In this document: piece after piece, positions 1 through 13,913 of the stretch | How positions within the stretch are numbered: position 1 is the first letter of the stretch | Layout: each line of letters starts with the position of its first letter | Virus genome (UHGV): UHGV-0120184 | DNA from: a virus | Strand: one strand, 5' to 3' | DNA length: 14,793 nucleotides | Notes under the pieces: model-generated | Told to the model about the DNA's origin: nothing | The model's database searches: none | The model's input: the letters and a program-made list of their open reading frames with translations, nothing else | Translations under genes and position numbers: made by a program

Positions 1-404
1 CCATCAGCCCGGAAAAAGCCAGAGAACTCAAAACCGCCGGGATCAACGCCTGGCGGAACAGAATGGAATCAGCCAGTTATATTTTCAGCTTTAATGGCCG
101 TAACTGGGATTATGGAAAGGAAACACAGGATCGCCTTGGCCCATCAGTTATCGCAGCAAAAGAAGGCAATCTCCCGGAGAAGTTTTTCTGGACAGACGCA
201 GACAACAACGACGTCCCCATGACTGCGGAAGAACTGATTGCGCTGAGTGAAGCCGCGCAACAGGCAATGTTCGCGAAGGGAATGGAAATTCATGTGCGCC
301 AGCGCAACATGAAAAAAGAGATTGCAGAACTTCAGGATGCGGAGGCCATTCAGCGTTACGTTGTGGGCTGGCCCACAACGGAAGAACCCGCCACCGAAAG
401 ATGA
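1..404 (+). CDS. Putative tail-fibre assembly/chaperone-like protein, C-terminal part (5' end lies outside the window)
   Basis: Frame 3 is open from position 3 through the stop at 402-404, so the 113-aa ORF in the track is the tail of a longer protein. It sits where the tail-fibre assembly gene lies in P2-like phages, adjacent to the tail genes. An 'NLPEKFFW' segment resembles Tfa-like proteins. The canonical lambda/P2 Tfa C-terminal motif (ATDEE..L..W..YRV.L.RVD) is NOT present, so the assignment is tentative. Confidence 0.35.
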   Translation, partial: ISPEKARELKTAGINAWRNRMESASYIFSFNGRNWDYGKETQDRLGPSVIAAKEGNLPEKFFWTDADNNDVPMTAEELIALSEAAQQAMFAKGMEIHVRQRNMKKEIAELQDAEAIQRYVVGWPTTEEPATER

Positions 405-412
405 ACAGCAAA

Positions 413-441
413 AACGCCCTGACACCAGGGCGTTATTATTT
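413..441. terminator. Bidirectional rho-independent terminator between the converging Tfa-like and gpU genes
   Basis: The stem aacgccctg (413-421) pairs with cagggcgtt (426-434) around a 4-nt loop. It is followed by ATTATTT on the plus strand and TTTTTGCTGTT on the minus strand. Confidence 0.55.
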
Positions 442-913
442 AAACCGGAATGGACAGATTATTCAGGGCACCTTTGACGTTATTCGCAAGATCACCAAGC
501 GACGAGGACTGAAGACGTTCACGCAGATCTTCATCCACACGCTCAAAAGTGACAGTAAACTCAATCTTTCTTGCCCGACCATAGCGATCAAGTTCAGAGC
601 GGGTGGTGTTAAGCCCGGTAATGACATACATCCCGTAAATCTGCCCTACCCCATCAATCAGCGGCCATGGTCGCCCGACGTAAGCCTGGCTGGTCAGTGC
701 GGTCAGGGAGACTTCACCGCCCGTAATTTCCGGGTAGAGCAAACCCGAAAGCGTGATGGTATCGTCACCCGCGCCGATATACTGCCAGCTGGCTGAGCGG
801 TTGATTCGCTCGTTCTTTACATGCCTCCAGTTACGGGACTGTTGTATTTGTTGGTATGGCAGTGTGCTTAACTGAAAAACAAACATGCCGTAAATCATCA
901 TCATAACCATCAC
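440..913 (-). CDS. U: P2 gpU-like tail protein
   Basis: The translation (MMVMMMIYGMFVFQ...GGEVSLT...WPLIDG.G.IYGMYVI...RVDE...) matches my recollection of P2 gpU. The start is GTG at 913 or ATG at 910, lying 2 nt after the TAG stop of the T gene (916-918), which implies translational coupling. Confidence 0.8.
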   Translation of the reverse strand: MMVMMMIYGMFVFQLSTLPYQQIQQSRNWRHVKNERINRSASWQYIGAGDDTITLSGLLYPEITGGEVSLTALTSQAYVGRPWPLIDGVGQIYGMYVITGLNTTRSELDRYGRARKIEFTVTFERVDEDLRERLQSSSLGDLANNVKGALNNLSIPV

Positions 914-915
914 TC

Positions 916-3747
916 CTAATCACGATCGCGGAAACTGTTCATACCGCCGGATTGTCTGCGAATTTCTTCCCGTACCGCCTCCCCCACCATTCTGGCAAGG
1001 TCGCGAGGGTTCTGCGTAACCACGTTGTGAAGGTGAACATGAATATCACCACCGTACACAGGCGGCGGTTCAGGAGAGCGCGAAGGCCCCCGGGGTGTCG
1101 GGGACACCGGATCCCACCGCTTAACCTCCACAGGACGGGAAGAATCCGGGGAAACCGCCGGAGACACAGGCGAAAACGCTGGCATAAGCGGAAGCCCGGG
1201 TGCAACAGTCGGTTCATTCCACTGCCCGCGAACAGCCAGCGCACGGGGGAGATTTTTAAACACGATATCGCCAGGACCGATACGCTTGCGGGCTTCCTGA
1301 AGCATACCCGACGTATTACCCTCGATACCTTTGAGCCTGCGAAGAACGCCACTGGTGCCGTCGTTTATGACAGAAGGCTTGCCACCATTATTACCTTTAT
1401 CATTGCCATCAACTGGCTTAGCGGGCGAGATAATGGCATTAACATCCCCCTGAAGCAGGGAGAGCTTGCCCTGAAGAAGCGAAGCCCGCTGTGCATCCTC
1501 CAGTTTCCGGCGCGCCCTTTCAGCTTCATCAGGCAGCACGCCAAGCTTTTCCAGTACCCAGGCAAGTCCATCCATCAGCGCCTTCAGCGGCGTAAGCGCA
1601 AGCGATATCGCCCCACTAAGTACACGACCGAAGCTTTCTCCCGCAGACGTACACCGTTCAAGAGATTCGTTGCTGGCCTGAACAGGCGTGAGTAACCGGG
1701 TAAACCAGTCAAACACCGTGGACACCGCACCCGACACCAGATCAAACAACGGCGCAAACTGAGCAATACTTTCACGAACAGGCGCAAGGCCAGCCCACAG
1801 CGACCGGAATGTGCCGAGCATGAACGCCTTAACCTGTTCCCAGTGACGCCATATGAGCAGCGCCCCACCGGCAAGAGCAGCAATCACGAGACCAACAGGA
1901 CTGAGAAGACCGGAAAGCACCCCGCCCAGCACAGAAACCGCACCGGAGACCATCCCCCACAGTGCCGGAAGGCCGGACAGGCGAAGAGCAAGACCACCAA
2001 CACCGTTTGTAAGCGAGGATAGCCCGCCACCAAGAAGCGCAGAGCCAAGCTGAAGTTTTGCAAAAATCCCCGTCAGTAACCCACCTCCGACAGACAACGC
2101 ACCAATGGCCGTTGTGGCCGCAAGCACGCCACCCACGGTAAGGGTCAGCGTGCGTACAAGCTGCGGGTTTTCCTGAACCCACGACCTGAAGCGTTCACCC
2201 ACAGAAGCAACAGCCTGTACAAGCTCGCGGATATCATCAGTAACCAGCGACACAACATCACTGCGAATACCGGAGAAAATGCCGGACAGACGATCGGTGT
2301 CGCCGCCGAGGTTGTCACGCAGAACATCCCCCATTCGCCGGGCGGTTCCCTGAACCAGCCCCATACGGTCAGATACCGTTGCAAGCGACCGGAGAAAATC
2401 CGGGATCTGGTCAACAGCCAGATCTTCAATGGGTGTGCCGAACAGCGCTATCGCCGCATTGGCCCGTTCTGCAGGATCCTGAATCTGTAACAGACCTGAC
2501 GCGGTGCGACGCATCGCTTCACGCGCGGCCGCGCCGCCACTGGCGATCGCTGACGACATTCTTTCAGCGTTAAGGCCAATCAGCTCATAGGCTTCAACGC
2601 TGGATTTGGACATATCCGAGCCGCGAATACTGAATTCTTTGACAGCATCGCCGGTTTTATCCAGGGCGAATTTCCCCTGCTGCGCCATGCTGACAAGCAG
2701 CGTCATGGTTTCAGAGCCGGATAGCCCCATATTGCGGAAATGCGTGGAATACTCATGCAGAATTTCAGGAAGTTCGCCGCGCATTTCGGCAGACATTTTC
2801 TGCATCCCTGCCGCCATCAGGTCGACGGCCTCACCTGCATTTGCGGCAAGCCCGTTTTTCAGCATAATGCCAGCAGCCTGAACCTGTTCAGCCACATTAC
2901 CGCCGGTGACCTGAGCAAGATCGATTGCCTGCCGTGTCACCCTTTCCAGTTCTTCAGTCCCTACGGTACCCAGTGCGCCAAGCGTGCTTTGCGCCGCAGC
3001 TGCTGCTTCCGAAATCATCGCGATATCCGTGGCCGCACCTGACGCACGGATGCTCTGAATCATACGGCTGTAGCGCTGGCCGTCTTCTGCGCTGCCGCCA
3101 CTCTGTGCCGCAATGAGCGCACCCTGCCGTTGCTCTTCAACAACAGGTGCAACCGCGCGACCGGCAGCATACAGACCGGCACTGCCAGCCGCCATGGCAA
3201 CAGCACCGCGCTGACTGAGCTTACCGGCAATATCCTGAACACGGTCATAGCGTTGCTGCGCCTGCGTGACGCGTGCAAGCTGGCCCCGCTGGCGTTCGAG
3301 CTGATCGTTGTATTCCTGCGTCCGCCTGATTGCCCTCTCGACCGCACGGTTACTTCCGTCCGCCCGTATACCGTGAGATTCCAGTTCGCGACTGGCTTCG
3401 CTAAGTCGGGATTTGTGGAGGGAATAAACCGTATTAAGGCGATCAATCTTCACAGTCAGCGAGCGTATAGCTTCCTGCTGTTTTTCCGTTAGTGTTGTGC
3501 CTGTACGCTGGGCCTCCTGGAGGCGCTGAAGTCGCGCACGCGCCTCGTTCAGACTGTTTTCAGTCGAGGTCACCTGCTGGCGGGCACGGGAAAACGCATC
3601 ACTGCTTCGCTGGAGTGACTTAAGAGCGTTCTGCGTGGAGGAAAGAGATTCGGAAAGCGCGCCGGTCATTTCCCGGGCGCGCCTGACGGGTTGAGTGAGA
3701 CGGTCGACCGCAGTAAGGGCTACACGTATCTGGAGATTATTACTCAT
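916..3747 (-). CDS. T: Phage tail tape measure protein (P2 gpT-like), ~943 aa
   Basis: A 2.8-kb ORF with Ala/Gly/Leu-rich coiled-coil and hydrophobic segments typical of tape measure proteins. It sits between E/E' and U as in P2. The likely start is ATG at 3745-3747 (MSNNLQIRV...), overlapping the E' stop; the track ORF extends to 3801 but the upstream Met lacks this coupling. Confidence 0.9.
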   Translation of the reverse strand: MSNNLQIRVALTAVDRLTQPVRRAREMTGALSESLSSTQNALKSLQRSSDAFSRARQQVTSTENSLNEARARLQRLQEAQRTGTTLTEKQQEAIRSLTVKIDRLNTVYSLHKSRLSEASRELESHGIRADGSNRAVERAIRRTQEYNDQLERQRGQLARVTQAQQRYDRVQDIAGKLSQRGAVAMAAGSAGLYAAGRAVAPVVEEQRQGALIAAQSGGSAEDGQRYSRMIQSIRASGAATDIAMISEAAAAAQSTLGALGTVGTEELERVTRQAIDLAQVTGGNVAEQVQAAGIMLKNGLAANAGEAVDLMAAGMQKMSAEMRGELPEILHEYSTHFRNMGLSGSETMTLLVSMAQQGKFALDKTGDAVKEFSIRGSDMSKSSVEAYELIGLNAERMSSAIASGGAAAREAMRRTASGLLQIQDPAERANAAIALFGTPIEDLAVDQIPDFLRSLATVSDRMGLVQGTARRMGDVLRDNLGGDTDRLSGIFSGIRSDVVSLVTDDIRELVQAVASVGERFRSWVQENPQLVRTLTLTVGGVLAATTAIGALSVGGGLLTGIFAKLQLGSALLGGGLSSLTNGVGGLALRLSGLPALWGMVSGAVSVLGGVLSGLLSPVGLVIAALAGGALLIWRHWEQVKAFMLGTFRSLWAGLAPVRESIAQFAPLFDLVSGAVSTVFDWFTRLLTPVQASNESLERCTSAGESFGRVLSGAISLALTPLKALMDGLAWVLEKLGVLPDEAERARRKLEDAQRASLLQGKLSLLQGDVNAIISPAKPVDGNDKGNNGGKPSVINDGTSGVLRRLKGIEGNTSGMLQEARKRIGPGDIVFKNLPRALAVRGQWNEPTVAPGLPLMPAFSPVSPAVSPDSSRPVEVKRWDPVSPTPRGPSRSPEPPPVYGGDIHVHLHNVVTQNPRDLARMVGEAVREEIRRQSGGMNSFRDRD

Positions 3748-4275
3748 CGTTATGATTCCCGGTTCTGACGGCCGCCCGTTCTCGCCAGGCAACCAGTTCA
3801 CCGGGAGTCATCACAAAGATTTCAGAGGGCGACCAGTGAAATACAACGGCTATATCAGCGACAATATCTTCAACGTAATCAAAAGCAAGAAGCGTTACGC
3901 GCCGCCCGCCTCCTGCGCCTTCTTCGCTGACGAGGGAAGCAAAAAACCGACTGCCACCTCGTACAGTTTAAAGAAGTCTTCCGGGCACATTGACATAAGT
4001 GCCGCGCGGCTGAGGTGAGGTTCAGTTACGCGTTCCAGAAAAATGGCGGCAGCATCAACATCGGTGTTGAACAGGTCCGTCATGCGGATCCCTCGAAGCG
4101 AGCCCACCTGACGCGCAAGCGCCCCAATCTTCACGCTGGAAACCGTCTTATTACCGCAGACAACAGGAACCCTGAGATTAACCGTGTCATTTGCGATCGC
4201 CTCTGCGTTTTCCGTGTCGCCATTCGTCACAGCATCTGTGTCATTCGTCACGATATTTTCTTCAGTCTGATCCAT
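3740..4275 (-). CDS. E': gpE+E' product of a programmed -1 ribosomal frameshift
   Basis: The slippery heptamer TTTTTTG (minus strand, plus coordinates 3946-3940) matches the conserved P2 E/E' and lambda G/GT signal. The -1 frame downstream is open for ~66 codons (ASLVSEEGAGGGRRVTLLAFDYVEDIVADIAVVFHWSPSEIFVMTPGELVAWRERAAVRTGNHNDE). It ends at TAA 3742-3740, overlapping the T start codon. Confidence 0.7.
3895..4275 (-). CDS. E: Tail assembly chaperone gpE-like
   Basis: It lies immediately upstream of the tape measure gene. An SD GGGAGA sits 6 nt before the ATG at 4275. A T-TTT-TTG slippery heptamer lies near its 3' end (see E+E'). Confidence 0.8.
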   Translation of the reverse strand: MDQTEENIVTNDTDAVTNGDTENAEAIANDTVNLRVPVVCGNKTVSSVKIGALARQVGSLRGIRMTDLFNTDVDAAAIFLERVTEPHLSRAALMSMCPEDFFKLYEVAVGFLLPSSAKKAQEAGGA

Positions 4276-4326
4276 TATTTTTCTCCCGGGGCAACAGGAC
4301 GCCGCCCCTGTTATCAGATTTAACTA

Positions 4327-4839
4327 TCAGCCAAGCCCCAGCATGGAGCGGGTGCGGTCAGGAAGAACATCCTTACCATCAATGCGCCAGATGAAGTTCA
4401 GCACGTCGATTTCAATAACATCGCTGTTATCAACGCTGAGCTTGTACCAGGTGCATTTCATCGCATAGGTATGTTCGGTATCTTCACCCTGTTTGGCCTC
4501 GCCCTTGTCGATTTCGACAATGCGACCACGGGCTTCAATATCGACGTACTCAATCCCTTCTTCGGAATAGTATTCACCCGAGAAGCGAACACGCACGGCA
4601 TCAATACCGGCGGCGTATTTGGCAAAGATGTGACGATCGACGCCACCAACCGCAAAGGAGAGATCCAGTGCACCATCATCAAGACCGAGATCCACCGACG
4701 CAGAGCCTGGCATCCCCGCCCCGCGATACGACTCTGTTTTACGGGTCAGTTTTGGCGGGGTAAAAGACGCCACCTTGCCCAGCTTGTTGTCACCGTCCAC
4801 AAAGACGGTAAACACACGAAGTTTTTTTGGTACGGCCAT
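4327..4839 (-). CDS. FII: Tail tube protein (P2 gpFII-like)
   Basis: The translation (MAVPKKLRVF...LTRK.E.YRGAGM.GSA..DLGLDD.A...GEGKQGEDTE...) matches P2 FII as I recall it. Its ATG overlaps the FI stop in a TAATG junction at 4839-4841. Confidence 0.9.
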   Translation of the reverse strand: MAVPKKLRVFTVFVDGDNKLGKVASFTPPKLTRKTESYRGAGMPGSASVDLGLDDGALDLSFAVGGVDRHIFAKYAAGIDAVRVRFSGEYYSEEGIEYVDIEARGRIVEIDKGEAKQGEDTEHTYAMKCTWYKLSVDNSDVIEIDVLNFIWRIDGKDVLPDRTRSMLGLG

Positions 4840-6032
4840 TAGCTACCTCCAAGAGATGCAAAAGCAGAGCCAAAGAACTCGTCGGTAAACGTCTGATAGA
4901 GTTCCATACACTCCATCGGCGGAACAGGCGTGTATTTGTAGCGAATACGCACAATGCCCTGACGAAGACTGGTTGTGCCGTTGTCGATGATATCGAACCA
5001 GCACTCAGCCCCGATGAGTTTTCCGGCTGTCACCAGTGCATCCAGCTTTGCCTTGATAGCGCTCACGGCATCCTTAGCATTGGCAGGCGTAAGCGGTGAA
5101 TCCACTATCTGAAGTTGCGCCTCCGCAATGGTGTCAGCCAGTTGCTGCGCCGTACGTGTGTACACCTCAAAGATGTACTCCGCAGTTTCCGGCGTACGGT
5201 TACCCCAGAAACGGAAGGAGCCGTCGCCCTGGTGAATAAGAGTGGTCACCTCGCTATTGTTCAGCGTGTTGGCATCGCTGTTTTCATCCTGAAGTGACCA
5301 GGAAACAGACGCTGACACCCCAAGAACATTTTTCACAGGCATGTTAGAAAGGGAGCGATGCCAGCCCTGTTCATGGTCGAGTCGGGCACGAAGACCGCAC
5401 GCATACGCCGCAGCCGGGAAGGTTTCGTTTTTACCGGACACCGGGTTGAACGCAATGAAATCAGGCCACAGAAGCATGATTTCGCGACCGGAAATCTTTT
5501 TACGGAACGCAATAGCATCGGACGGTTTTGTGCAGCCAGGGCAGCCGGAATACGCAAATGCGCGCATTTTTCCGGCAACAGTCACCAGTGCAGCCGTGAC
5601 AGCATCCGATTCAAGGCCCGGAGCGGCAAGAATGCGGGGTCGGTAACCAATACCTTCCATCTGTTCGGCAACCAGAAGCGCCTGCATACCGCTGTAGCTT
5701 CCGTCTTCTTCCGTGGTACCAATGACCAGTTGATCCTGTGTTTTATTCTCAGCCCCCTCTTTTGCCGCCTCCACGCGAACGACAATCACCCGTGTACTGA
5801 CCTGGTCAGATATCGCTTTAAGGGCCTTATAAAGCGTGCCCGCTTTCCCGGCCTTCCCCAGAACAGAAGATACACGGGTAATCAGCACAGGCTTGTTAAG
5901 GGGGAACTGCCCGGTATCCGCATCATCTGCAACGGCAACAATACCAATGACGCTGGAATCAACGTCATTAATGGCCGTCACAAGGTCGGTATTCTCCGTG
6001 ACGCGCACACCGTGAAATCGTTTTTCAGCCAT
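4839..6032 (-). CDS. FI: Contractile tail sheath protein (P2 gpFI-like), ~397 aa
   Basis: The translation (...HGVRVTE...FPLNKPVLIT...KAGKAGTL...) matches P2 FI. The preferred start is ATG at 6030-6032 (MAEKRFHGV), preceded by GGTGA 5 nt upstream. The track ORF starts 4 codons earlier at 6044 but has no SD. Confidence 0.9.
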   Translation of the reverse strand: MAEKRFHGVRVTENTDLVTAINDVDSSVIGIVAVADDADTGQFPLNKPVLITRVSSVLGKAGKAGTLYKALKAISDQVSTRVIVVRVEAAKEGAENKTQDQLVIGTTEEDGSYSGMQALLVAEQMEGIGYRPRILAAPGLESDAVTAALVTVAGKMRAFAYSGCPGCTKPSDAIAFRKKISGREIMLLWPDFIAFNPVSGKNETFPAAAYACGLRARLDHEQGWHRSLSNMPVKNVLGVSASVSWSLQDENSDANTLNNSEVTTLIHQGDGSFRFWGNRTPETAEYIFEVYTRTAQQLADTIAEAQLQIVDSPLTPANAKDAVSAIKAKLDALVTAGKLIGAECWFDIIDNGTTSLRQGIVRIRYKYTPVPPMECMELYQTFTDEFFGSAFASLGGS

Positions 6033-6107
6033 ACGATTCACCATCAGTTGTGTTTATGCTCGCCTGAATAATCCACCATTGGCGCACAGCCCTCACCTGA
6101 TGCGGGC

Positions 6108-6125
6108 TGTGGGGATTTTTTTACA
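6108..6125. promoter_or_regulatory. Ogr/Delta-type activator box (TGT-N12-ACA) in the FI/D divergent intergenic region
   Basis: TGT (6108-6110), then the 12-nt spacer ggggattttttt, then ACA (6123-6125). On the minus strand a -10-like GATTAT (plus 6074-6069) lies ~45 bp from the dyad centre. This places the dyad at about -55 of an FI promoter, as in P2 late promoters. No convincing -10 is seen for a plus-strand (D) promoter. Confidence 0.5.
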
Positions 6126-6185
6126 ACAGAGCCGGACAGAAACGACAAGGTACGCGTGGGATGATACGCACACGGGAGGGATATC

Positions 6186-7331
6186 ATGAGCATCACTGAA
6201 TCAGTAACACATCACATCAACAGCGCACTGGATGCAGCGGAAGATACCGTTAGGGTGCCAGACTTCACTATCACACTGGAAGGGAAAGATGCCAGCCTGA
6301 AGAACATCACGCAGCGCATCATGAGCCTGACCATGACAGACAACAGGGGTTTTGAGGCTGACAGGGTGACACTGGAAATCGACGACGCCGACGGCGGGGT
6401 GGTACTTCCGGAGCGCGGAACACGATTATCGCTGGCGATGGGATGGAAAGGTGAAAGCCTCACTCGCAAGGGGGCGTTTGTGGTGGACGAAGTGAGCCAC
6501 GAAGGTCCGCCGGATAAGCTGACCATATCCGCGAACAGTGCGGATTTTCGCGAAGAGTTTAACGTGAAACGCGAAGTCTCCTGGCATGACGTGACCGTTG
6601 AGCGTGTGGTATCTGCCATCGCGCACCGTTACGGACTGAAAGCACAAATCAGCGAAATGCTGATGAATATCGAAATCGACCATGCAGACCAGACAGAGGA
6701 AAGCGACATCTCGTTCCTCACGCGTATGGCTGACATGCTGGGTGCAATAACCACCGTAAAAAACGGGTGCCTGCTGTTCATTCTGCCGGGTGGCGGTGTG
6801 ACAGCCAGCGGGCGCGCCCTCCCCTCATTCGCCCTGACCCGCTCGGATGGCGACAGTCATCGCTTTCGCATTGCTGACAGAAAAGCCTATACCGGAGTGA
6901 AAGCTTACTGGCTGGATTTAAAGTTCGGCCAGAAGAAGGCCGTGAACGTGAAAAAGCGAAACGCGAAAACCACACAGAAGCCGGAGAAAAGCAGTTCACG
7001 GGAGGGTGGATACATGGAAGGCGCAGAAGGCAATGTGTATGTGCTGAGAAAAACCTACCCGAACGAAGAAGCCGCGCGTCGCGCAGCTGCCGCACGCTGG
7101 CAGCAACTTCAGCGGGGTGCAGCAGAATTCAGCATCACGCTGGCGCGCGGACGCGCCGACCTGTATCCGGAGATGCACGGCACGGTATCCGGGTTCAAGA
7201 GCGACATTGACAATCAGGACTGGATTATTTCGCGCATTGAGCACGTCATCGACGACAGCGGCTTCACCACCAGACTGGAGCTGGAAGCAAAAATCGCAGA
7301 CTGGATAGCAGAGCGCGCCACGACTGGCTAG
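6186..7331 (+). CDS. D: P2 gpD-like tail protein (late control D family)
   Basis: The N-terminal and central regions (MS.T.S......L.....MSLT.TDNRGFEAD...I..DD.DG.V.LP.RG......GW.G.....KG.F.VDE..H.G.PD.L...A.SADFR......R.ESWHD.T...V..IA.R) match P2 gpD closely. An SD GGGAGGG sits 5 nt before the ATG. Confidence 0.9.
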   Translation: MSITESVTHHINSALDAAEDTVRVPDFTITLEGKDASLKNITQRIMSLTMTDNRGFEADRVTLEIDDADGGVVLPERGTRLSLAMGWKGESLTRKGAFVVDEVSHEGPPDKLTISANSADFREEFNVKREVSWHDVTVERVVSAIAHRYGLKAQISEMLMNIEIDHADQTEESDISFLTRMADMLGAITTVKNGCLLFILPGGGVTASGRALPSFALTRSDGDSHRFRIADRKAYTGVKAYWLDLKFGQKKAVNVKKRNAKTTQKPEKSSSREGGYMEGAEGNVYVLRKTYPNEEAARRAAAARWQQLQRGAAEFSITLARGRADLYPEMHGTVSGFKSDIDNQDWIISRIEHVIDDSGFTTRLELEAKIADWIAERATTG

Positions 7332-7372
7332 AATGAGCGCGAGCCCACCCCGTTTCAGCCAGGGGGACCATC

Positions 7373-7675
7373 ATGCATCCTTGCCCATACTGCGGAGCAA
7401 GTACCCGCACCAGAACAAGCCGCGACGCCAACGATACAGGAACAATCAGGGAGAAATATTACCAGTGCAACAACATTGAATGCAGCGCCACCTTTGTGAC
7501 GCACGAGTTTGTCGTGAGAACCGTATGCCGTCCGCAACCCACCGAAGAACGGGGAGTCGTCCCCGCAGACGCTTTCAAATCATGCCACCGGGGAAGGGAT
7601 CAACTCAGCCTCCCCCTGGGCGATTGCGCCTCCCAGTCAAAAACTGTACATTACGCGCGGGTGCCTTTCGGCTGA
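7373..7675 (+). CDS. ogr: Ogr/Delta-family zinc-finger late-gene transcriptional activator (100 aa, longer than the 72-aa P2 Ogr)
   Basis: The N-terminus MHPCPYCGASTRTRTSRD....REKYYQCNNIECSATF matches the Ogr C4 zinc finger (CPxC ... KYYQC..x..C.ATF). It follows D as in P2. Confidence 0.85.
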   Translation: MHPCPYCGASTRTRTSRDANDTGTIREKYYQCNNIECSATFVTHEFVVRTVCRPQPTEERGVVPADAFKSCHRGRDQLSLPLGDCASQSKTVHYARVPFG

Positions 7676-7805
7676 CGGCTGGAAGGATTACCTGAAGGCC
7701 GGATGTGGAAAGGCCCCGGAAAACATCTCTGTTTAGCCGAGGCCCTAATCTACATATCTTTAGCAAGTAGAAGGTTAGCGCCTCTTTGAAAAAGGAGCAA
7801 GCGCT

Positions 7806-7946
7806 ATGCCGCAAAAAACGATCATCGTGAGCATTTTATGCTTAACCATGTTGTTGACCGTCTGGATGATACATCGTTCACCATGTGAATTCAGACTTAA
7901 CATCATGTGGTCAGAATTTGCGGCGTTCTTGCAGTGTAAACCGTAA
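7806..7946 (+). CDS. hok: Hok/Gef-family type I toxin (46 aa; closest to HokA by recall)
   Basis: Translation: MPQKTIIVSILCLTMLLTVWMIHRSPCEFRLNIMWSEFAAFLQCKP. It has the MPQK start, a single transmembrane segment, the conserved C-E-x-R and E(V/F)AAF(L/M) motifs and an AAGGAG RBS 8 nt upstream. It is followed by structured hairpins and a strong terminator, as expected for the stable hok mRNA 3' end. Confidence 0.75.
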   Translation: MPQKTIIVSILCLTMLLTVWMIHRSPCEFRLNIMWSEFAAFLQCKP

Positions 7947-7954
7947 GAAACCGC

Positions 7955-7976
7955 AGCGGGGGTGAAAGCCCCCGCT
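7955..7976 (+). other. GC-rich stem-loop just after the hok stop (candidate fold-back/3' structural element of hok mRNA)
   Basis: agcggggg (7955-7962), loop tgaaa, then gcccccgct (7968-7976). No T-run follows, so this is probably structural rather than a terminator. Confidence 0.4.
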
Positions 7977-8040
7977 ATCCGGTTGCCGAAGGTTCGGTCG
8001 AAAGCCGCACCCGTGCATGCAAGTGACAAAGAAAAAACAA

Positions 8041-8073
8041 AGCCCGCAGCGTAAAAACTGCGGGCTTTTTTAT
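8041..8073 (+). terminator. Rho-independent terminator (likely hok transcript end; A-rich upstream so possibly bidirectional)
   Basis: agcccgcag (8041-8049), loop cgtaaaaa, ctgcgggct (8058-8066), then TTTTTTA. Confidence 0.7.
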
Positions 8074-8110
8074 TCACATACCGAAGGTGTGGTAACTGCC
8101 TGGGTTCAGA

Positions 8111-8137
8111 CCAAAAAAAGCCCCATAAAATGGGGCT
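8111..8137 (-). terminator. Rho-independent terminator for minus-strand transcripts (end of the AT-rich membrane-protein operon)
   Basis: The minus strand reads AGCCCCA-TTTTA-TGGGGCT followed by TTTTTTTGG (plus-strand stem 8119-8125 and 8131-8137, A-run 8113-8119). Confidence 0.6.
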
Positions 8138-8284
8138 GAAGATTCTGTAAGGAATTTCACAGCAATGAGATTCTAGTCTCTTCCAATGATATATGAGTCT
8201 TCAGCCTGAATCAATGGGGCATGACTGTGAATCCACCGACGATCAAAACTTGCACAATGCCTGAAGTTGAGTTAGAAAAGTACC

Positions 8285-8345
8285 GGGCGCGATATCCGGT
8301 TTATTTTTTGTTGCTGTGTTTTGCCTCGTGCCGGATATCGCGTCC
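8285..8345. repeat. Long inverted repeat: 12-15 bp arms, each containing an EcoRV-like GATATC palindrome, around a T-rich 31-nt loop
   Basis: cgcgatatccgg (8288-8299) and ccggatatcgcg (8331-8342), extendable by three flanking pairs (two G-C and one G-U wobble). A T5 run follows on the plus strand. It lies between the minus-strand operon and its terminator. Confidence 0.4.
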
Positions 8346-8432
8346 ACCGTTTTTCTGATGATTCTTATGAAATCGTACTTTATTGATTTACTGCCATCCT
8401 GGTTTGTCTTTTTATGTTCATTATTGCGACAG

Positions 8433-8828
8433 TCATTTCCTGTTTCTGGTGATGTTTTGATAAAAGTGAAAGAATAAAACGATCATTGCAGAAGGTATTG
8501 CTAAAACCATACATATCATTATATAAACAAGATGAAAATGATATATACCATAAGACCAGAAAAAAGGTTTTTTCCAGAATGATATGGATGTGTATTTTAG
8601 TGTAATTGTTTTTGTCAGGTATATTGAACAAGGAAGAGCCAGGCCACTGAGTATCAGAAATAAGTCAACTTTTATCGATGCTTCTGTTGGTGTGTCATAT
8701 ATAAGATGCAATATGGATATTATAATGGGGCACATTCCCCACAGGATATTTTTGAAATAGAATTTCCGGTTCATATGTTTATGCTCTTTGGTTTTATCCC
8801 GGGAATTGGCGCTTTGTTTTTTATTCAT
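8433..8828 (-). CDS. Small predicted multi-pass membrane protein (131 aa in the track; the start may be the internal Met 19), AT-rich
   Basis: Open frame in a ~1.3 kb strongly AT-rich segment. It has 3-4 hydrophobic helices and starts at/overlaps the stop of the upstream 223-aa ORF (ATGA-type coupling). No recognisable family. Confidence 0.5.
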   Translation of the reverse strand: MNKKQSANSRDKTKEHKHMNRKFYFKNILWGMCPIIISILHLIYDTPTEASIKVDLFLILSGLALPCSIYLTKTITLKYTSISFWKKPFFWSYGIYHFHLVYIMICMVLAIPSAMIVLFFHFYQNITRNRK

Positions 8829-9492
8829 GAACGTTTTCGTTGTTTAATAACCATGGGGTATTATGATTATCCTTTATTTTTGATATGTAATTGTCAATAG
8901 TGGATTTCGTTTCATTATTGTGGTTATAGTAATCATGAAGAGTGCAAAACACATCATCTTTTATTGTGGCGATTAATGGGGCTTGTGTGAGGGTAAAATA
9001 TAAAGAACGATTACTTAGTGTCCTGAAATAAATTTTTTCGCCAATGACCAGATCGGTGTTCATTATATTGTAGCCTATTTCAAATATATTGTTTGATGGC
9101 ATGTGTAATACATATGTGGGGTATTTGTTGTGTTTTTTCATTAAATAATAAATAAAATCAGATACAGGCATCTGTTTTAGTTTTTTTTGCATCTTCCTTA
9201 TGTGTTGTGACATTAATATCATTTTCGAGAGAATGCATAAGAGACTAAACAAGAGATTAAATACTATGTTCAGTACTATCAGAGTAACAAACAGGCCAAT
9301 GCTCCTTAGCGCTGAAAATATATTGTCATTGTAAATATACTGGAATGTATATCCGGCTGATAAAAATGCCAATATATATAACACTATGTCTGTTTTATTT
9401 CGCTTTTTTATTTTGTAGGTTATTGCTGATTTTAAGAATAAGATGGCAATAAGAGCAGTGATAACCCAGAAAAATATAACGGAAACTTCCAT
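8821..9492 (-). CDS. Predicted membrane protein (223 aa): N-terminal ~3 transmembrane helices plus a ~130-aa Asn/Lys/Tyr-rich soluble C-terminal domain
   Basis: Long ORF in the AT-rich island. An AAAGG RBS sits 7 nt before the ATG at 9492. A promoter-like TTTACA-N17-ATAAAT and a palindrome lie upstream. No family recognised. Confidence 0.6.
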   Translation of the reverse strand: MEVSVIFFWVITALIAILFLKSAITYKIKKRNKTDIVLYILAFLSAGYTFQYIYNDNIFSALRSIGLFVTLIVLNIVFNLLFSLLCILSKMILMSQHIRKMQKKLKQMPVSDFIYYLMKKHNKYPTYVLHMPSNNIFEIGYNIMNTDLVIGEKIYFRTLSNRSLYFTLTQAPLIATIKDDVFCTLHDYYNHNNETKSTIDNYISKIKDNHNTPWLLNNENVHE

Positions 9493-9542
9493 AATTATAC
9501 CTTTATCGTGTTTTCAGGGAGGTAATTTATCATTGTGCTGAT

Positions 9543-9562
9543 ATGCATGTAAATACATGCAT
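9543..9562. promoter_or_regulatory. Perfect 9-bp inverted repeat (ATGCATGTA-aa-TACATGCAT), a candidate operator overlapping the putative promoter of the 223-aa gene
   Basis: Palindrome seen directly in sequence. It lies 50-70 bp upstream of the ATG at 9492, on the transcribed side. Confidence 0.35.
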
Positions 9563-9690
9563 TATCTGTTTCTTATATTCTTTTTATGAAGTTACTGATT
9601 AATTTATATTAAAACAACACATTCATAATGAAATCAACATGTTCATATGGTTGACGGCAGATTTCTCTTTTTGTTAACCTGCATCTGCAT

Positions 9691-9939
9691 TAACTGTCGC
9701 TTCGGCGACCACCAATGTTCCATAGTGGCCTGTGAGGAACGCCTTCGGGTGGCCCATGTCGCTCCGGCGACCACCAATGCTCCATATGACCTGTGAGGAG
9801 CGCCTTCGGGTGGTCAGTTTTACACCTCCGTAGCCTGAAAGGAGCTGTGAGTACTGAAGGGAAACATCCCTGATGTATGGGCAAATCTGCACACCTTTGA
9901 GAGCAGATGTCACTACGGTTTTACGTGATGATGAAGGCA
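9691..9939. repeat. Direct repeat copy 1 (~249 bp), containing two tandem ~62-bp sub-repeats (9696-9757 and 9758-9817) and a hairpin-rich 3' half
   Basis: It is ~98% identical to 12484-12733 (constant offset 2794; the central ~170 bp are identical). Sub-repeat unit: gtcgctYcggcgaccaccaatgYtccataKRRcctgtgaggaRcgccttcgggtggYcMR. It has a cgcc-UUCG-ggug tetraloop-type hairpin and a gaccacc/ggtggtc stem. ORFs 9674..9940 and 9690..9884 (-) overlap it in two frames and look like repeat artefacts. Confidence 0.9.
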
Positions 9940-10117
9940 TTCCGGATTCCGTTCCGGTACTTTTATTTTTTCTCAGCAGACAGGCATAAAAACGCCTTTA
10001 AAATCTGCGTCTTAAGATATTTTCTGACTTTCCGCATGAGCTTCTTATGACTGTGCGCACGGCATAAGACCATTTGAAATTTGGTCGCTTGCGTGTGCAT
10101 GTGGAGTTTGAAGCTGT

Positions 10118-10163
10118 GCGGCGTCACTTGCGTGCGACCGAAGGGAACACCAAGTGACGCCGC
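10118..10163. repeat. 13-bp perfect inverted repeat (gcggcgtcacttg ... caagtgacgccgc) with a 20-nt loop, in the GC-rich leader region upstream of the recombinase gene
   Basis: Arms at 10118-10130 and 10151-10163. Further hairpins lie nearby (tgcc-ctgaa-ggca at ~10171-10183; cgtccgt-tttcaca-cggacg at ~10291-10309). Confidence 0.6.
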
Positions 10164-10210
10164 GGCCATCTGCCCTGAAGGCAGCATCACGTAAGGTCTG
10201 GCAGAAAATC

Positions 10211-10260
10211 GTCGCTCGTGACAAGCGTCCTGATGCTCGTTTTGTCGCTCTGACAACGTC
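10211..10260. promoter_or_regulatory. Two direct repeats of a TGACAA-containing motif (gTCGCTCgTGACAAgCGTC / gTCGCTC-TGACAA-CGTC), iteron-like candidate protein-binding sites
   Basis: Units at 10211-10229 and 10244-10260. TGAC/GTCA cores recur across 10120-10275. Confidence 0.35.
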
Positions 10261-10605
10261 TTTCGGTGACGTATCCACGCCTTTCCGGCGCGTCCGTTTT
10301 CACACGGACGGCCACGCCGGAATGTCTTCTTAAACTTCGTAATACATGAGAGGTAAGTGTATTAACTGACTGAAATAAAGGAATAAAAATGAAAAATCGT
10401 TCTGATGTCGGGAGGCGTCATCGTAAGGTGACGGGGAGTATTCCTCAACAATCGCCCTGGTGCACAGGTAGCGAACTCCTGTAAGAACTCAACATGTGCA
10501 AGCTCTGCTACATCGACATCAAACGAGCCAGGAAGGCGAACAACCGCGTTACAGAGCCGTCCGTGATGACGAAAAACTAACAATATCAACGAACTTTTCT
10601 GTTTA

Positions 10606-10660
10606 CCGGAAGGGCTGCGTATGCAGTTTTACTTTGTGAACGGAAGGGGGCTGCATCTGA
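10606..10660 (+). promoter_or_regulatory. Pair of ~20-bp direct repeats (cGGAAGGGcTGCgTaTGcA / cGGAAGGGggCTGCaTcTGA) immediately upstream of the recombinase gene
   Basis: Repeats at 10606-10626 and 10640-10660. An SD GGGAGA and the ATG at 10683 follow. Confidence 0.35.
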
Positions 10661-10682
10661 TTTTTACAGGGAGAATGACTTT

Positions 10683-11600
10683 ATGGCCCGGAAATCGTCA
10701 CGTTCTAAAGTTGAACTGTTTCGCAAGTCTTTCATCTCACTTGCCCGTGAGTGTGGTGGCAGTTACGCAACAACAGCTGACAGAATGAGAATTGCAAAGT
10801 ACTTCCTGAATTATTTACGTGAAAATGGAATTAAACTTCGCCAGACGAGCAGTATTAAAACCAGACATATTTCTGGTTACCTTCTCAGCAGGAAAGCAGC
10901 GGGTATTTCTCACCGGACTATTCAGAATGAACGGGCGGTTATGCGTGCCATTTTAGAAAAAGATGGACGACTTAAAATCGCAGATCCTTCTAACCCATTA
11001 TTGAGTAATGAAGCGCTCGGCCTAAAGGATACATGCCGTGATGGAAAGAAAATAGCATTGTCACCGGATGAATTCTGGAAAGCATTTGCTAAAGTGGAAA
11101 AAAAGAATCCTGGTGTGGCAGCTGCAATGCAGCTTTCTTATGTTCTGGGTTTAAGAACAAAAGAAGCCGTTCAGTCATGTAAGTCTGTTCAGTCATGGCT
11201 ACGGGAACTGAATTCAGGGTGCGATTCTCTTTCGGTCGTTTTTGGTACGAAAGGTGGAAGACCAAGAAATACCACAATTATTGACAGAGATGCGGTAAGA
11301 CATGCTTTGCTTTATGCTCAAAAAATAATGGATGAACACGACGGAAAACTTATTGACCGTCCAAATATAAAACAGGCTATCAATGTTTTTCGTTATCATG
11401 CCCGTAAAGCGGGATTGTCAGGAGTGAAATCTCCGCACAGTATGCGTTATCATTTTTCTCAGGAAGCCAGAAAATTTTATCGAAAAAATGGATATGGAGA
11501 GTCGGAAATCTACGCTCGTGTTTCTATGGATCTTGGCCATGGTGACGGAAGAGGTCGTTATGTAAAACAGGTTTATTTTAACGGTTCTGATGAAAGTTGA
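10683..11600 (+). CDS. Tyrosine site-specific recombinase (phage-integrase family), 305 aa
   Basis: The catalytic-domain signature is visible: box I LGLRTKEA (Arg), a GTKGG lysine hairpin, box II HSMRYHF (His-x-x-Arg), and LGHGDGRGRYVKQVY (His ... Tyr nucleophile). The N-terminus has a core-binding (SAM-like) domain pattern (IKLRQ.SSIKTRHI..Y......G.S.RTI.NE....R). Confidence 0.8.
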   Translation: MARKSSRSKVELFRKSFISLARECGGSYATTADRMRIAKYFLNYLRENGIKLRQTSSIKTRHISGYLLSRKAAGISHRTIQNERAVMRAILEKDGRLKIADPSNPLLSNEALGLKDTCRDGKKIALSPDEFWKAFAKVEKKNPGVAAAMQLSYVLGLRTKEAVQSCKSVQSWLRELNSGCDSLSVVFGTKGGRPRNTTIIDRDAVRHALLYAQKIMDEHDGKLIDRPNIKQAINVFRYHARKAGLSGVKSPHSMRYHFSQEARKFYRKNGYGESEIYARVSMDLGHGDGRGRYVKQVYFNGSDES

Positions 11601-11603
11601 TAT

Positions 11604-12341
11604 TTAAAATGAATCTGGAGGATATGTGTTTTTGTTAATTTCGGTTATGATGATTTCTGATGCGCGATTACACATATCTTCATCAAAATACCCAATATGA
11701 CATTCATGAATGTGACAATTCAGTTTTCTGGATAGCCATATATTTGCCTCGTTACGGGATATGTTGGCTCTTTGCTGATAATTGTCAAAAAGTTTACGTA
11801 CTTTTGTTCTGAGTATTCTCAGGTTTTCTTTAGCCGGAGTACCTAATGGTCTTCCTGAGTTTTTATGGCATCCAACCCATGCATTGCATGGGGGACAAAT
11901 CCAGTAATATTTGTTTTCTGTCGCGGCTGAAATGGAAAATGGCATGAGAGCCCCTTTTATAAGATTCGTCTTATTTCCACAGTATGGGCAGATAACAATT
12001 GGTCGGACATCTGCAATATTCAGTGATGTATAAGTCAGTCGTTCATTTTTAACGATGTTTCTCTTTCCGCAATGGGTGAGAACATGCTTTATTGTATCTA
12101 ATTCTTCTCGTAGTATTTTGGAACTGACGCCAGTGCGATAACGTTGTTGAAAATAGCATTCAATATGACGTAGTTTTATGCTATTTGCTGAGCTTATCTG
12201 TATATTGGCATCTTTAAGAAATGAAGCAAGTCTTCTGGCTCTTCCCGTATATACCAACATATCTTCTGGCGTCGGGGCGCATGCTTTGGCTATTCTGAGT
12301 AGTTCATCTTTTAATTTTTTGTATTTCGATTTCATTTTCAC
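11604..12341 (-). CDS. Recombinase-N-domain paralog lacking a catalytic domain, fused to an Ogr/Delta-like C4 zinc ribbon (245 aa)
   Basis: Its N-terminal ~90 aa aligns with the N-domain of the adjacent recombinase (SFLKDANIQISSANSIKLRHIECYF..RYRTGVSSKILREELDTIKHVL versus YFLNYLRENGIKLRQTSSIKTRHISGYL..RKAAGISHRTIQNERAVMRAIL). The C-terminus has CPYCG-x26-CPPC with ENKYYWIC, paralleling the Ogr finger in this same window (CPYCG...REKYYQC..C), plus an extra CHIHECH cluster. No R/HxxR/Y catalytic motifs. A promoter-like CTGACA-N17-TATTTT lies upstream. Confidence 0.65.
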   Translation of the reverse strand: MKMKSKYKKLKDELLRIAKACAPTPEDMLVYTGRARRLASFLKDANIQISSANSIKLRHIECYFQQRYRTGVSSKILREELDTIKHVLTHCGKRNIVKNERLTYTSLNIADVRPIVICPYCGNKTNLIKGALMPFSISAATENKYYWICPPCNAWVGCHKNSGRPLGTPAKENLRILRTKVRKLFDNYQQRANISRNEANIWLSRKLNCHIHECHIGYFDEDMCNRASEIIITEINKNTYPPDSF

Positions 12342-12483
12342 ATCTCTCTTACAGGTTCATAAAGAGTGTTACTGAATTAAAAAATATCAAATTGAGCTGG
12401 CCTTGTCAGTCAGCTGTAGGTTATTACCATAGCCACGACAACAACTTGAAGTTTTATGTTGTTTATGATTATATTTTAGACGC

Positions 12484-12733
12484 TAACTTGTCGCTCCGGC
12501 GACCACCAATGTTCCATAGTGGCCTGTGAGGAACGCCTTCGGGTGGCCCATGTCGCTCCGGCGACCACCAATGCTCCATATGACCTGTGAGGAGCGCCTT
12601 CGGGTGGTCAGTTTTACACCTCCGTAGCCTGAAAGGAGCTGTGAGTACTGAAGGGAAACATCCCTGATGTACGGGCAAATCTGCACACCTTTGAGAGCAG
12701 ATGTCACCACGGTTTTACGTGATGATGAAGGCA
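12484..12733. repeat. Direct repeat copy 2 (~250 bp), same internal tandem sub-repeat structure as copy 1
   Basis: See copy 1. ORFs 12469..12678 and 12483..12782 (-) are repeat artefacts mirroring those across copy 1. Confidence 0.9.
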
Positions 12734-12735
12734 CT

Positions 12736-12745
12736 TTGTATACAA
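12736..12745. promoter_or_regulatory. Perfect 10-bp palindrome TTGTATACAA immediately flanking repeat copy 2
   Basis: Seen directly in sequence. Possible operator or recombination-site element. Confidence 0.25.
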
Positions 12746-12807
12746 TGTGACTATGAGTTGTCTCTGGTCTTCTTAAGCGCATCGTGCTGACGCATTGATG
12801 TGTTCAC

Positions 12808-12851
12808 CTGACGGATTTTCCAGTCCGTCAGGGCGGAACGTCCGTCTTTTT
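12808..12851 (+). terminator. Tandem stem-loops followed by T5 (terminator or attenuator) just upstream of the 12867 gene
   Basis: ctgacgg (12808-12814) pairs with ccgtcag (12825-12831). Then cgga-acg-tccg (12834-12844) is followed by tcttttt. Confidence 0.45.
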
Positions 12852-12866
12852 CATTCGGAGGTTCCG

Positions 12867-13268
12867 ATGTTTATACCACTTTTGTTACGTGCAGATATGC
12901 GCATAACGCCTTTCTTTCATCTTCTCAGACAATGTCTGTTTAATCAGAAGCGTTGTGTTCACCCACAACAGCCCTGGTCCGCTCCACAACTGAGGCATCT
13001 GTACTGCACTCCGTGGTTTATTAACGCCACCGGCAATCTGTCAGTCAGAGCCTGCATTGTTTCCACCAACGGTGCATTGCGACACTGCTTTGAGTTCCGT
13101 GAAGGCTCTCACAGCCGTGAATATCGTTACTGGTTTGAGGCACTTCCGCTGTCTGTCGTGCGGTTTAATGTCTTTACCGGTCGAATATCTGCTCGCCGCA
13201 CGCTTTCTGCTGCCTCCCGTATGGCCGTGCAGCTTACTTCTTTTCGCTATCGCTTCGGTCTTCGCTGA
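12867..13268 (+). CDS. Hypothetical protein (133 aa, Arg/Cys/Trp-rich); coding status uncertain
   Basis: The ATG at 12867 is preceded by GGAGG at a good distance. The composition is unusual and no family was recognised. The track ORF begins earlier at 12795. Confidence 0.35.
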   Translation: MFIPLLLRADMRITPFFHLLRQCLFNQKRCVHPQQPWSAPQLRHLYCTPWFINATGNLSVRACIVSTNGALRHCFEFREGSHSREYRYWFEALPLSVVRFNVFTGRISARRTLSAASRMAVQLTSFRYRFGLR

Positions 13269-13380
13269 AGCCTGTTGAACGGTCGTCATGACCGTTGAAA
13301 GGTTTATCACACAACGCCCGGATCTGTCTGACCGTACCACGCGTGCGCGATGACAAATCTGAGTTTTCCTTAACCCGTCC

Positions 13381-13418
13381 GGGACCGCTCCCGTTCGGGG
13401 ACGGTCCCGCTGTTTTTA
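13381..13418 (+). terminator. Rho-independent terminator
   Basis: gggaccg (13381-13387), inner mini-hairpin cccg-ttcg-ggg, cggtccc (13402-13408), then GCTGTTTTTA. Confidence 0.55.
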
Positions 13419-13432
13419 TCAGGAGATTGTTT

Positions 13433-13813: not shown

Positions 13814-13913
13814 TTATTTTTCTGTCCTTGTTTTTAACCTTATTACCCTGTCGGGAACATGTGTCCCGTAGGGCAGGTGTGTTCCCGTAATTTTTTGTAT
13901 CTGAGGTGAACAC

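Follow-up and report, generated by a model that had tools for sequence, protein, structure and literature searches.

Bacteriophage P2 carries the tail genes FI, FII, E, E+E', T and U, together with D and the late activator gene ogr, on one strand. D is the last gene of its F operon and overlaps U. The activator-dependent late promoters of P2 are expected to function without a -35 element. In the RefSeq annotation of P2, from which the sharing of one site by pP and pO is taken here, a single feature (activator binding site; pO, pP promoters) is placed at 3057-3087. The two annotated starts, 3016 and 3127, are 111 bp apart and symmetric about 3071.5. For phage Smp131, identical box coordinates are given for PP' and PO', which lie on opposite strands (PMC3931495). 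Among the phages with a different arrangement of the tail genes, P88 was induced as a phage from its host strain and PhiSM makes plaques (PMC5285337, PMC6456863).

The sequence analysed here (the window; 14,793 nucleotides, virus genome UHGV-0120184) has U, T, E/E', FII and FI on the minus strand between a fibre-module gene and D/ogr, which are on the plus strand (Table 1). The block is inverted relative to P2, as the initial annotation stated. It was read there as the arrangement expected from a flip in place; it is instead the normal order of a large, already described group of enterobacterial P2-like phages, and the finding is an ordinary one. In the P88-type clade the block and its predicted Ogr-dependent promoter pF are fixed in the orientation opposite to that of P2. 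In this prophage, which belongs to that clade and has the fixed inverted block, it is quite probable from the sequence that the dyad-symmetric Ogr site between FI and D works both ways, serving D as well as the sheath operon.

The prophage and its inverted tail block

The tail genes of the window lie in the right arm of a prophage of E. coli that belongs to the P88-type clade of Peduoviridae. Sixteen complete E. coli genomes match the window over at least 80% of positions 1-8100, and 15 of the 16 do so at 98.7-99.6% identity. The E. coli prophage L001 (99.6% identical) is complete from int to ogr and is located between dmsA and serS, and the matching part of the window corresponds to its right end. 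Farther right, within 7500-8700, the window passes from ogr through hok into an ICE, a junction that may have arisen by recombination or in the assembly, by joining through the 436-bp hok repeat.

Table 1. Genes and predicted control elements in the window
Feature	Position	Strand	Basis
DUF4376 tail-fibre-module gene, C-terminal part	1-404	+	Pfam DUF4376 E 3.5e-16; PHROG tail-fibre families E 1e-49
Bidirectional intrinsic terminator hairpin	413-434	.	9-pair GC-rich stem, T runs on both strands; -16.1 kcal/mol, z -4.4 to -5.0
Tail gene U	440-913	-	Pfam Phage_P2_GpU E 7e-41; 48% identity to P2 U
Tape measure T	916-3801, likely start ATG 3747	-	Pfam PhageMin_Tail; PHROG 28 E 3e-120; PGAP start in L001
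E+E'	3740-4275	-	-1 frameshift at TTTTTTG (3946-3940)
Tail chaperone E	3895-4275	-	Pfam Phage_TAC_7; PHROG 103
Tail tube FII	4327-4839	-	Pfam Phage_tube E 6e-49
Tail sheath FI	4839-6032 (ORF open to 6044)	-	Pfam sheath domains
Predicted -10 of FI late promoter, GATTAT	6068-6073	-	Downstream end 48.5 nt from box centre; predicted start ~6061
Predicted Ogr-type activator site, GCTGT-N12-ACAAC	6106-6127	.	Core TGT-N12-ACA 6108-6125, centre 6116.5
Predicted extended -10 of D late promoter, TGgGATGAT	6157-6165	+	Downstream end 48.5 nt from box centre; predicted start ~6172
Baseplate hub / late control gene D	6186-7331	+	Pfam Phage_GPD; PHROG 52 E 2e-153
Predicted -10 of ogr promoter, TAGAAT	7329-7334	+	Overlaps D stop codon
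Ogr/Delta-family zinc-finger late activator, 100 aa	7373-7675	+	Pfam Ogr_Delta (PF04606) E 1e-15

The gene identities and strands first assigned were borne out by Pfam for every gene, with PHROGs in agreement. E' is real as well: a -1 shift at the slippery TTTTTTG gives a 178-aa E+E' product, the end of which (3740) overlaps the start of T (3747) by 8 nt, as it does in P2. FI starts at ATG 6032, as PGAP has it in L001, and the alignments with homologues begin at residue 5. Given this start, the FI/D spacer is 153 bp long and not 140 bp as first reported. D has its own Shine-Dalgarno sequence, GGGAGGG, at 6175-6181. The Ogr homologue has four cysteines (C-X2-C-X24-C-X4-C) and is 46% identical to P2 Ogr over residues 1-54.

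The first ORF had been described as G-like. It does belong to the tail-fibre module, according to PHROG and to its context in L001, where the gene comes after a tail-fibre gene; the full protein has 201 aa. The gene closes the rightward baseplate/fibre operon, at the position of P2 gene G, and its likeness to G is one of position alone; Pfam gives DUF4376 only. The ORF also matches genes annotated as tail fibre assembly. The terminator at 413-434 sits between the converging fibre operon and F operon.

At least five ICTV genera of Peduoviridae have this order: Xuanwuvirus (P88 and PhiSM), Gemsvirus (500465-2), Reginaelenavirus (3LV2017), Novemvirus (phiT5282H) and Reipivirus (ST16-OXA48phi5.4 and Kp4845-1). 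It is also shared by 520873, Chuche and Serratia phage KSP20. Among the matches listed, the inverted order is present in all 44 phage records that match to the left and to the right of the FI/D junction, and the sheath is at least 60% identical in the same number of records. The junction is spanned in about 23 of 30 rows sampled evenly from the 1,525 matching E. coli records, and roughly a fifth of complete E. coli genomes carry the inverted order. An IMG/VR scan gave ten loci, seven of them inverted (L004-L010), two canonical (L011 and L013) and one (L012) without a D match. Canonical colinear order occurs in phages with more distant proteins, namely P2, Dagavirus, Graikaemvirus, L003, L011 and L013. 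A sheath scan of species-representative genomes found one distant locus, in Chitiniphilus (47% identity), and its order is canonical. P2-like phages of Burkholderia (PMC3091744) were considered as a further instance and rejected: D, U and, by consecutive gene numbering, T to FI are all on the minus strand, which is the canonical order drawn reversed. The literature search found no paper on this gene order or on an FI/D promoter.

The inverted repeats that the initial annotation proposed to look for at the block borders did not appear; none pairs ~405-440 with ~6045-6185, and the best pairs, with 72-84% complementarity, are within coding sequence. Since the order spans genera and no inverted repeats flank the block, the arrangement is a long-standing feature of the lineage and did not arise by a flip in place. 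With the block reversed, D and ogr form a separate rightward unit.

The FI/D spacer

The predicted Ogr-type site had been described as a single box. Its core is indeed the only exact TGT-N12-ACA in positions 440-7675, but the whole window has three matches. This is no enrichment over the 4.06 expected by chance, and the motif is at chance level in L001 too. The weight of the box therefore comes from its position and its conservation. In eight diverged relatives it is conserved as GTT(G/C)T-N12-ACAAC, with ACAAC invariant; the left half-site is TCT, in contrast to TGT in the window, in P88, Novemvirus and Reipivirus sequences. A sibling box is found in the P/O region of the same prophage, as also in those of P88 and phiT5282H. 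The latter two phages have only two (G/T)TCT-N12-ACAACAAAA sites per genome, located in the P/O and FI/D spacers. Note that the P/O spacer of L001 looks rearranged, which makes it an imperfect comparison promoter within L001.

The box had been placed near -55 of an FI promoter, which agrees with predicted starts at 55-56 nt from its centre. The FI ATG lies 84.5 nt from the centre of the box in the window, compared with 83 nt in P2, 78.5 nt in Dagavirus and 81.5 nt in Graikaemvirus, implying that pF moved along with the block. At the position of the FI-side -10, relatives have GATTAT, GATGAT or GAATAT when the spacers are stacked on the box, with no variation at positions 2, 5 and 6 of the hexamer (A47, T48, T51). 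On the D side, where no clear -10 had been seen, a conserved extended -10 is present in the window and in the eight diverged relatives. It is invariant as TG-n-nAnnnT (T136, G137, A140, T144 in alignment A1) and lies at the mirror distance from the box. The non-coding columns that never vary in alignment A1, made of 8 diverged spacers, are both halves of the box, FI-side hexamer positions 2, 5 and 6, and the D-side TG with hexamer positions 2 and 6. The same extended -10 design (TGCCATCAT) is found on the pO side of P88 and phiT5282H.

The predicted FI and D start sites are ~111 bp apart, and the predicted -10 hexamers match 3-4 of the six consensus positions. Neither promoter has a -35 match, and a sigma-70 scan of 6033-6185 finds no full promoter. 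The spacer has the features of a P2-type late promoter region, that is, a partial dyad near -55 of the predicted starts, -10-like hexamers without a -35, and a cognate Ogr/Delta activator encoded alongside. The predicted -10 of ogr is kept in relatives as TAGAAT, TAAAAT or CATAAT and lines up with the one annotated for Pogr in P2. Taken together, these predicted elements suggest that a single Ogr box most likely serves D as well as the sheath operon, in the manner of the P2 P/O pair. The initial annotation had concluded that D and ogr need another source of transcription. This is not borne out: the D-side extended -10 is conserved, P2 itself runs two divergent late promoters from one activator site, and ogr has a conserved -10 of its own.

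Models of late control

In the proposed mechanism, Ogr bound at 6108-6125 would switch on two promoters, a leftward one in front of FI-FII-E/E'-T-U (-10 GATTAT, start ~6061) and a rightward one in front of D (extended -10 TGnGATGAT, start ~6172). Such bidirectional use would copy the single activator site of P2 for divergent pP and pO. The promoter of ogr itself, with its predicted -10 TAGAAT at the stop codon of D, would supply the first Ogr, and late in infection ogr could also receive read-through from the D promoter. One breakpoint of the ancestral inversion probably fell somewhere from the fibre-operon terminator to the pF box, and the other at the junction of U and D. Such breakpoints would put the symmetric box right in front of D.

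On balance, the analysis also leans towards a wider reading, in which the FI/D spacer would be a second bidirectional Ogr-dependent region, made by an ancestral inversion that moved pF and its dyad box in front of D. The symmetry of the site would have let the operon be split and flipped with late control kept, and the late genes of P88-type phages would run largely from two shared sites, P/O and FI/D. No paper stating that FI/D is a second bidirectional Ogr-dependent control region was found in the literature search.

Extended -10 promoters can work without a -35 or an activator, and the D-side element is a TGn extended -10, so that D transcription might not need Ogr. D also has a short leader and a Shine-Dalgarno sequence of its own. 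The Ogr box would then serve the FI promoter only, and D, with ogr by read-through, would be transcribed independently of the activator and uncoupled from Ogr. This is unlikely, however, given that the D-side hexamer is at the exact mirror distance (48.5 nt) and is kept in relatives despite the diverged spacer. The same extended -10 occurs on the pO side in P88 and phiT5282H, and pO of P2 is annotated as activator-dependent. Unregulated D in a lysogen would also have no obvious use. The box itself could in principle be a chance by-product of a terminator-like hairpin (6088-6112) and a seven-T run and no activator site, as the motif count is at chance level, its TGT lies in the 3' arm of the hairpin (-18.6 kcal/mol, z -2.35) and its N12 holds the T run. 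This is barely credible: the hairpin and T run are confined to the window's own sublineage, whereas every relative keeps the box, at constant distances from FI and D, and the terminator reading was rejected on this lack of hairpin conservation. In addition, the hairpin lies between the predicted divergent starts and would stay untranscribed, the stem and the T run are four bases apart, and there is no upstream rightward transcription needing termination.

The inverted order relative to P2 and the detachment of D from the F operon are also what would be seen if the block had been flipped in place in this prophage, with late control rewired and D/ogr reliant on some other source of transcription. 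That is very improbable. The order is fixed across the genera and the E. coli genomes counted above, the borders have no inverted repeats, D and ogr have conserved promoter elements, and phages with this order are viable (PMC5285337, PMC6456863).

Comparison with P88-type phages and P2

Escherichia phage P88 and Citrobacter phage PhiSM of Xuanwuvirus, and the allied genera, have the same gene order and strands as the window, and in P88 hok comes after the ogr homologue. In P88-type relatives the FI/D spacer is of equal size, the box is at equal distances and the -10 elements are the same. Protein identity between the window and clade members is 63-76% for FI, 59-76% for D, 31-50% for T and 31-48% for E. 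FI and D are nearer to the clade than to P2, Dagavirus and Graikaemvirus (at most about 47-53%). The window thus has the characters of the clade: P2-type FI, FII, E/E', T, U and D with an Ogr-family activator, the gene order, and protein closeness. Unlike the window, P88 carries a DNA invertase and an invertible segment of the fibre module between its fibre genes and U.

The ICTV draws genus boundaries at about 70% nucleotide identity across the genome. When positions 1-8100 were compared by megablast with 50,697 phage records, only the hok segment and the fibre-module ORF matched and the tail block had no match. The prophage is therefore outside Xuanwuvirus and allied genera at the nucleotide level, and the tail block comparisons rest on protein and 'distant' DNA searches. 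The similarity to Xuanwuvirus falls short of a genome-wide one, the junction region being ~74% identical over only 53% of its length with the right arm alone compared. For annotation, U-T-E-FII-FI on the minus strand followed by D-ogr on the plus strand is a common clade marker in enterobacterial P2-like prophages and no flag of a rearrangement.

P2 shares with the window FI, FII, E, E+E' (with the TTTTTTG frameshift), T, U, D and ogr, at 25-48% protein identity. In both, the Ogr box is ~83-85 nt upstream of the FI ATG, and ogr has its own -10 at or just after the end of D. In the window, unlike P2, FI to U are reversed and D starts its own unit. Ogr has 100 aa and a 24-residue inter-cysteine spacer here, as against 72 aa and 22 residues in P2.

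If the proposed mechanism is confirmed, the FI/D spacer would be a natural case of a symmetric activator site (at ~-55) reused both ways after an operon inversion, and the P2 pP/pO design would extend to tail genes. In both the P2 pP/pO region and the window, one partial-dyad site lies midway between divergent late promoters, annotated in P2 and predicted in the window, the starts of which are annotated or predicted 111 bp apart, and the promoters of both have weak -10 elements and no -35. The site of P2 reads TGT-N12-CCA, while that of the window is a perfect TGT-N12-ACA. The P2 site serves the terminase/portal and capsid operons; that of the window would probably serve the sheath operon and D.

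Gene order in the tail block and its distribution

The gene content and strands of the window (see table) are as the initial annotation described them, with ORF, Pfam and PHROG results in agreement, E' included. Its statement that the FI-to-U block is inverted relative to P2 is also correct as a description. Since FI begins at ATG 6032 rather than 6044, however, the FI/D spacer is 153 bp and not 140 bp. E' is genuine: a -1 shift at the slippery site TTTTTTG (3946-3940, minus strand) gives an E+E' product of 178 aa ending at 3740. In P2 the end of E' has an identical 8-nt overlap with the start of T (3740 versus 3747 in the window). A strong bidirectional terminator hairpin (413-434) divides the convergent fibre gene and U.

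Genes of the tail block in the window, named from six-frame ORFs and from Pfam and PHROG searches
Gene	Position	Strand	Remark
DUF4376 tail-fibre-module gene	1-404	+	C-terminal part
U	440-913	-	
Tape measure T	916-3801	-	likely start at 3747
E	3895-4275	-	
Tube protein FII	4327-4839	-	
Sheath protein FI	4839-6044	-	true start ATG 6032
D	6186-7331	+	
Ogr/Delta zinc-finger protein	7373-7675	+	100 aa

The same order is found in P88, 520873 and PhiSM (Xuanwuvirus), Klebsiella phage 3LV2017 (Reginaelenavirus), Enterobacter phage phiT5282H (Novemvirus), phage 500465-2 (Gemsvirus), and Kp4845-1 and ST16-OXA48phi5.4 (Reipivirus). It is also found in Serratia phage KSP20, phage Chuche, Klebsiella CP052639.1 (recorded as a plasmid) and IMG/VR contigs L004-L010. 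P88 was obtained as phage by induction of its host strain, and PhiSM is plaque-forming (PMC5285337, PMC6456863). Note that in the PhiSM record (Shae_phiSM) the labels are off by one gene, with 'late control gene D protein' given to the sheath and 'ogr' to D. The colinear P2 order is kept where the sheath or D is more distant (identity up to ~53%), as in P2, Dagavirus, Graikaemvirus and the loci L003, L011 and L013.

A 1-kb junction probe running from the FI start across the spacer to the D start found both sides of the junction in 44 phage records. Phage records with a sheath at least 60% identical to that of the window number 44 as well. Among complete E. coli genomes, 1,525 records matched the probe. 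In an evenly spaced sample of 30 of these, rows 1-23 span the junction, which extrapolates to ~1,100-1,200 records, or about one fifth of the 5,426 E. coli genomes, ST131 among them. Inverted repeats were sought at the cassette borders, and no pair joins the two borders of the block. Because the order is common to many described phages and E. coli genomes and no inverted repeats pair the borders, the comparison indicates that the inversion is of long standing and fixed in a described clade, the P88-type Peduoviridae (Xuanwuvirus and allied genera). The initial annotation had itself named such a result, the order being the norm in a described peduovirus subgroup, as grounds for refuting its reading.

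The most economical history would be a single inversion, with one breakpoint between the fibre-operon terminator and the box of the FI promoter (pF) and the other at the U/D junction. Such an inversion would bring the symmetric box directly ahead of D. In P88, 24860-27564 directly separates the fibre operon from the U end of the block; it contains a DNA invertase gene and, on the opposite strand, an alternative tail-fibre/fibre-assembly pair that is presumably an invertible segment. The window lineage has the terminator alone at this border. Any role for the invertase when the block first inverted is purely speculative.

Origin of the window and the hok junction

Window 1-8074 is 99.6% identical to E. 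coli S1-CAM-02-A, in which a complete P2-like prophage lies between dmsA and serS and has this stretch as its right end. This prophage has int, a repressor, a Cox-like regulator, replication endonuclease, portal, terminase, capsid, lysis and baseplate genes, and its right side runs from the fibre genes through the FI-to-U/D block and ogr to hok. No deposited phage has a nucleotide-level match to the tail block, so the prophage counts as a clade member that is still unclassified.

The hok-type toxin module (7639-8074; hok CDS 7806-7946) is found at 99.6% identity in two differing contexts, the prophage right end adjoining serS and the inside of an integrating conjugative element (ICE) with TraG, TIGR03756/7 proteins, an rpmE paralogue, an integrase-domain protein, a zinc-finger protein and ArdC. 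Beyond 7639 the window runs on into the ICE (8075-14793). Both hok copies are present, in inverted orientation, in strains such as G1/2. The ogr-hok-ICE junction occurs in none of the 5,426 E. coli genomes, all of them complete, and the module is shared by two contexts. Two explanations of the window follow: recombination through the 436-bp repeat, perhaps as a large inversion, or a join made in assembly. The low-GC ICE part has two STAXI RNA motifs (9695-9868 and 12489-12662, plus strand; 78 and 76 bits) and one EFASI motif (10397-10525, plus strand; 72 bits) in Rfam. Of the two further TGT-N12-ACA matches in the window, one (10495-10512) falls within the latter.

Predicted promoter elements of the FI/D spacer and of ogr

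The Ogr-type box TGT-N12-ACA in the FI/D spacer (6108-6125) is one of three in the window, against ~4 expected by chance, so the bare motif carries little meaning and context decides. When the FI/D spacers of all relatives were extracted and anchored on the box, GTT(G/C)T-N12-ACAAC was present in every one, and its distance from each of the FI and D start codons is constant among them. When eight diverged spacers were aligned, the invariant non-coding columns were the ACAAC half-site with G, T and T of the opposite half-site; hexamer positions 2, 5 and 6 on the FI side (GATTAT in the window, 6073-6068, minus strand); and TG, one base, and hexamer positions 2 and 6 on the D side (TGgGATGAT, 6157-6165). 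In the sigma-70 -10 hexamer, positions 2 and 6 are the two best conserved, and the extended -10 is marked by 'TGn'. The initial annotation had seen no clear -10 on the D side; this conserved element lies there at the mirror distance from the box. Neither side has a -35 match, as would be expected of activator-dependent late promoters like those of P2. In the window the box centre (6116.5) is 48.5 nt from the end of either hexamer, so start sites are predicted near 6061 and 6172, 111 bp apart.

An 8-bp GC-rich hairpin, CACAGCCC...GGGCTGTG (-18.6 kcal/mol), is followed by GGGA and seven T's and overlaps the left half of the box (6088-6122, plus strand). The T run occupies the N12 of the box. A reading of the box as a by-product of the hairpin (6088-6112) and T run is rejected, as the hairpin is confined to the window's own sublineage while the box is conserved; the hairpin also sits between the two predicted start sites.

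The ogr-like gene has a -10-like TAGAAT (7329-7334) overlapping the D stop codon. Across all relatives this element is TAGAAT, TAAAAT or CATAAT, aligned with the annotated -10 of the P2 ogr promoter. Because this conserved -10 matches the P2 position, the start of ogr expression is predicted to be independent of D-side transcription. The Ogr homologue itself is longer than that of P2 (100 versus 72 aa), with a cysteine-pair spacer of 24 residues versus 22 and a C-terminal extension of ~45 residues that does not align to P2 Ogr (residues 1-54 are those matched in tblastn). Its N-terminal 82 residues are common to the P88 and 3LV2017 homologues; the former has no CDS in RefSeq (tblastn 45% identity, 34476-34724).

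A bidirectional FI/D promoter is a reasonable reading of the spacer. The first Ogr would come from ogr's own promoter and would then bind the single dyad site, activating FI-to-U leftward and D rightward; read-through from D to ogr may also occur. Its chief competitor has the D-side extended -10 functioning without Ogr; the exact mirror spacing and the pO-like design of the D side speak against it. The earlier view that the inversion rewired late control and left D and ogr in need of another source is not supported: a D-side extended -10 sharing the box is predicted, and ogr has its own conserved -10.

Comparison with the late promoters of P2 and its relatives

The box-to-FI ATG distance is 84.5 nt in the window, 83 in P2, 78.5 in Dagavirus and 81.5 in Graikaemvirus. 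This likeness shows that pF travelled with the block.

In L001, the S1-CAM-02-A prophage locus (48 kb), GTTGT-N12-ACAAC has just two matches at no more than one mismatch, at the P/O and FI/D junctions. Its P/O control region (7146-7300, outside the window) looks truncated: the box ATTGT-N12-ACAAC (7212-7233) coincides with the opening codons of gpO, the scaffold gene (TTG 7213), the P-to-O spacer is only 66 bp, and ~85 bp present in P88 are missing (pO core promoter, leader and first ~6 codons). The prophage may be defective.

P88 and phiT5282H have just two (G/T)TCT-N12-ACAACAAAA sites per genome, in the P/O and FI/D spacers. On their pO side the extended -10 is built alike (TGCCATCAT), and its offset is almost that of the D side in the window. 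In both whole genomes S and V overlap and only these two boxes were found. They appear to have no separate pV-type box, and their late genes may be served by two bidirectional control regions versus three in P2.

For P2, RefSeq gives a single 'activator binding site; pO, pP promoters' (3057-3087), with mapped starts at 3016 and 3127 that are 111 bp apart and symmetric about 3071.5. In Smp131, PP' and PO' are assigned to identical box coordinates, one on each strand, so the two share a single box (PMC3931495). While no description of a bidirectional FI/D promoter was found in the literature searched, such a promoter is a direct extension of the pP/pO design of P2.
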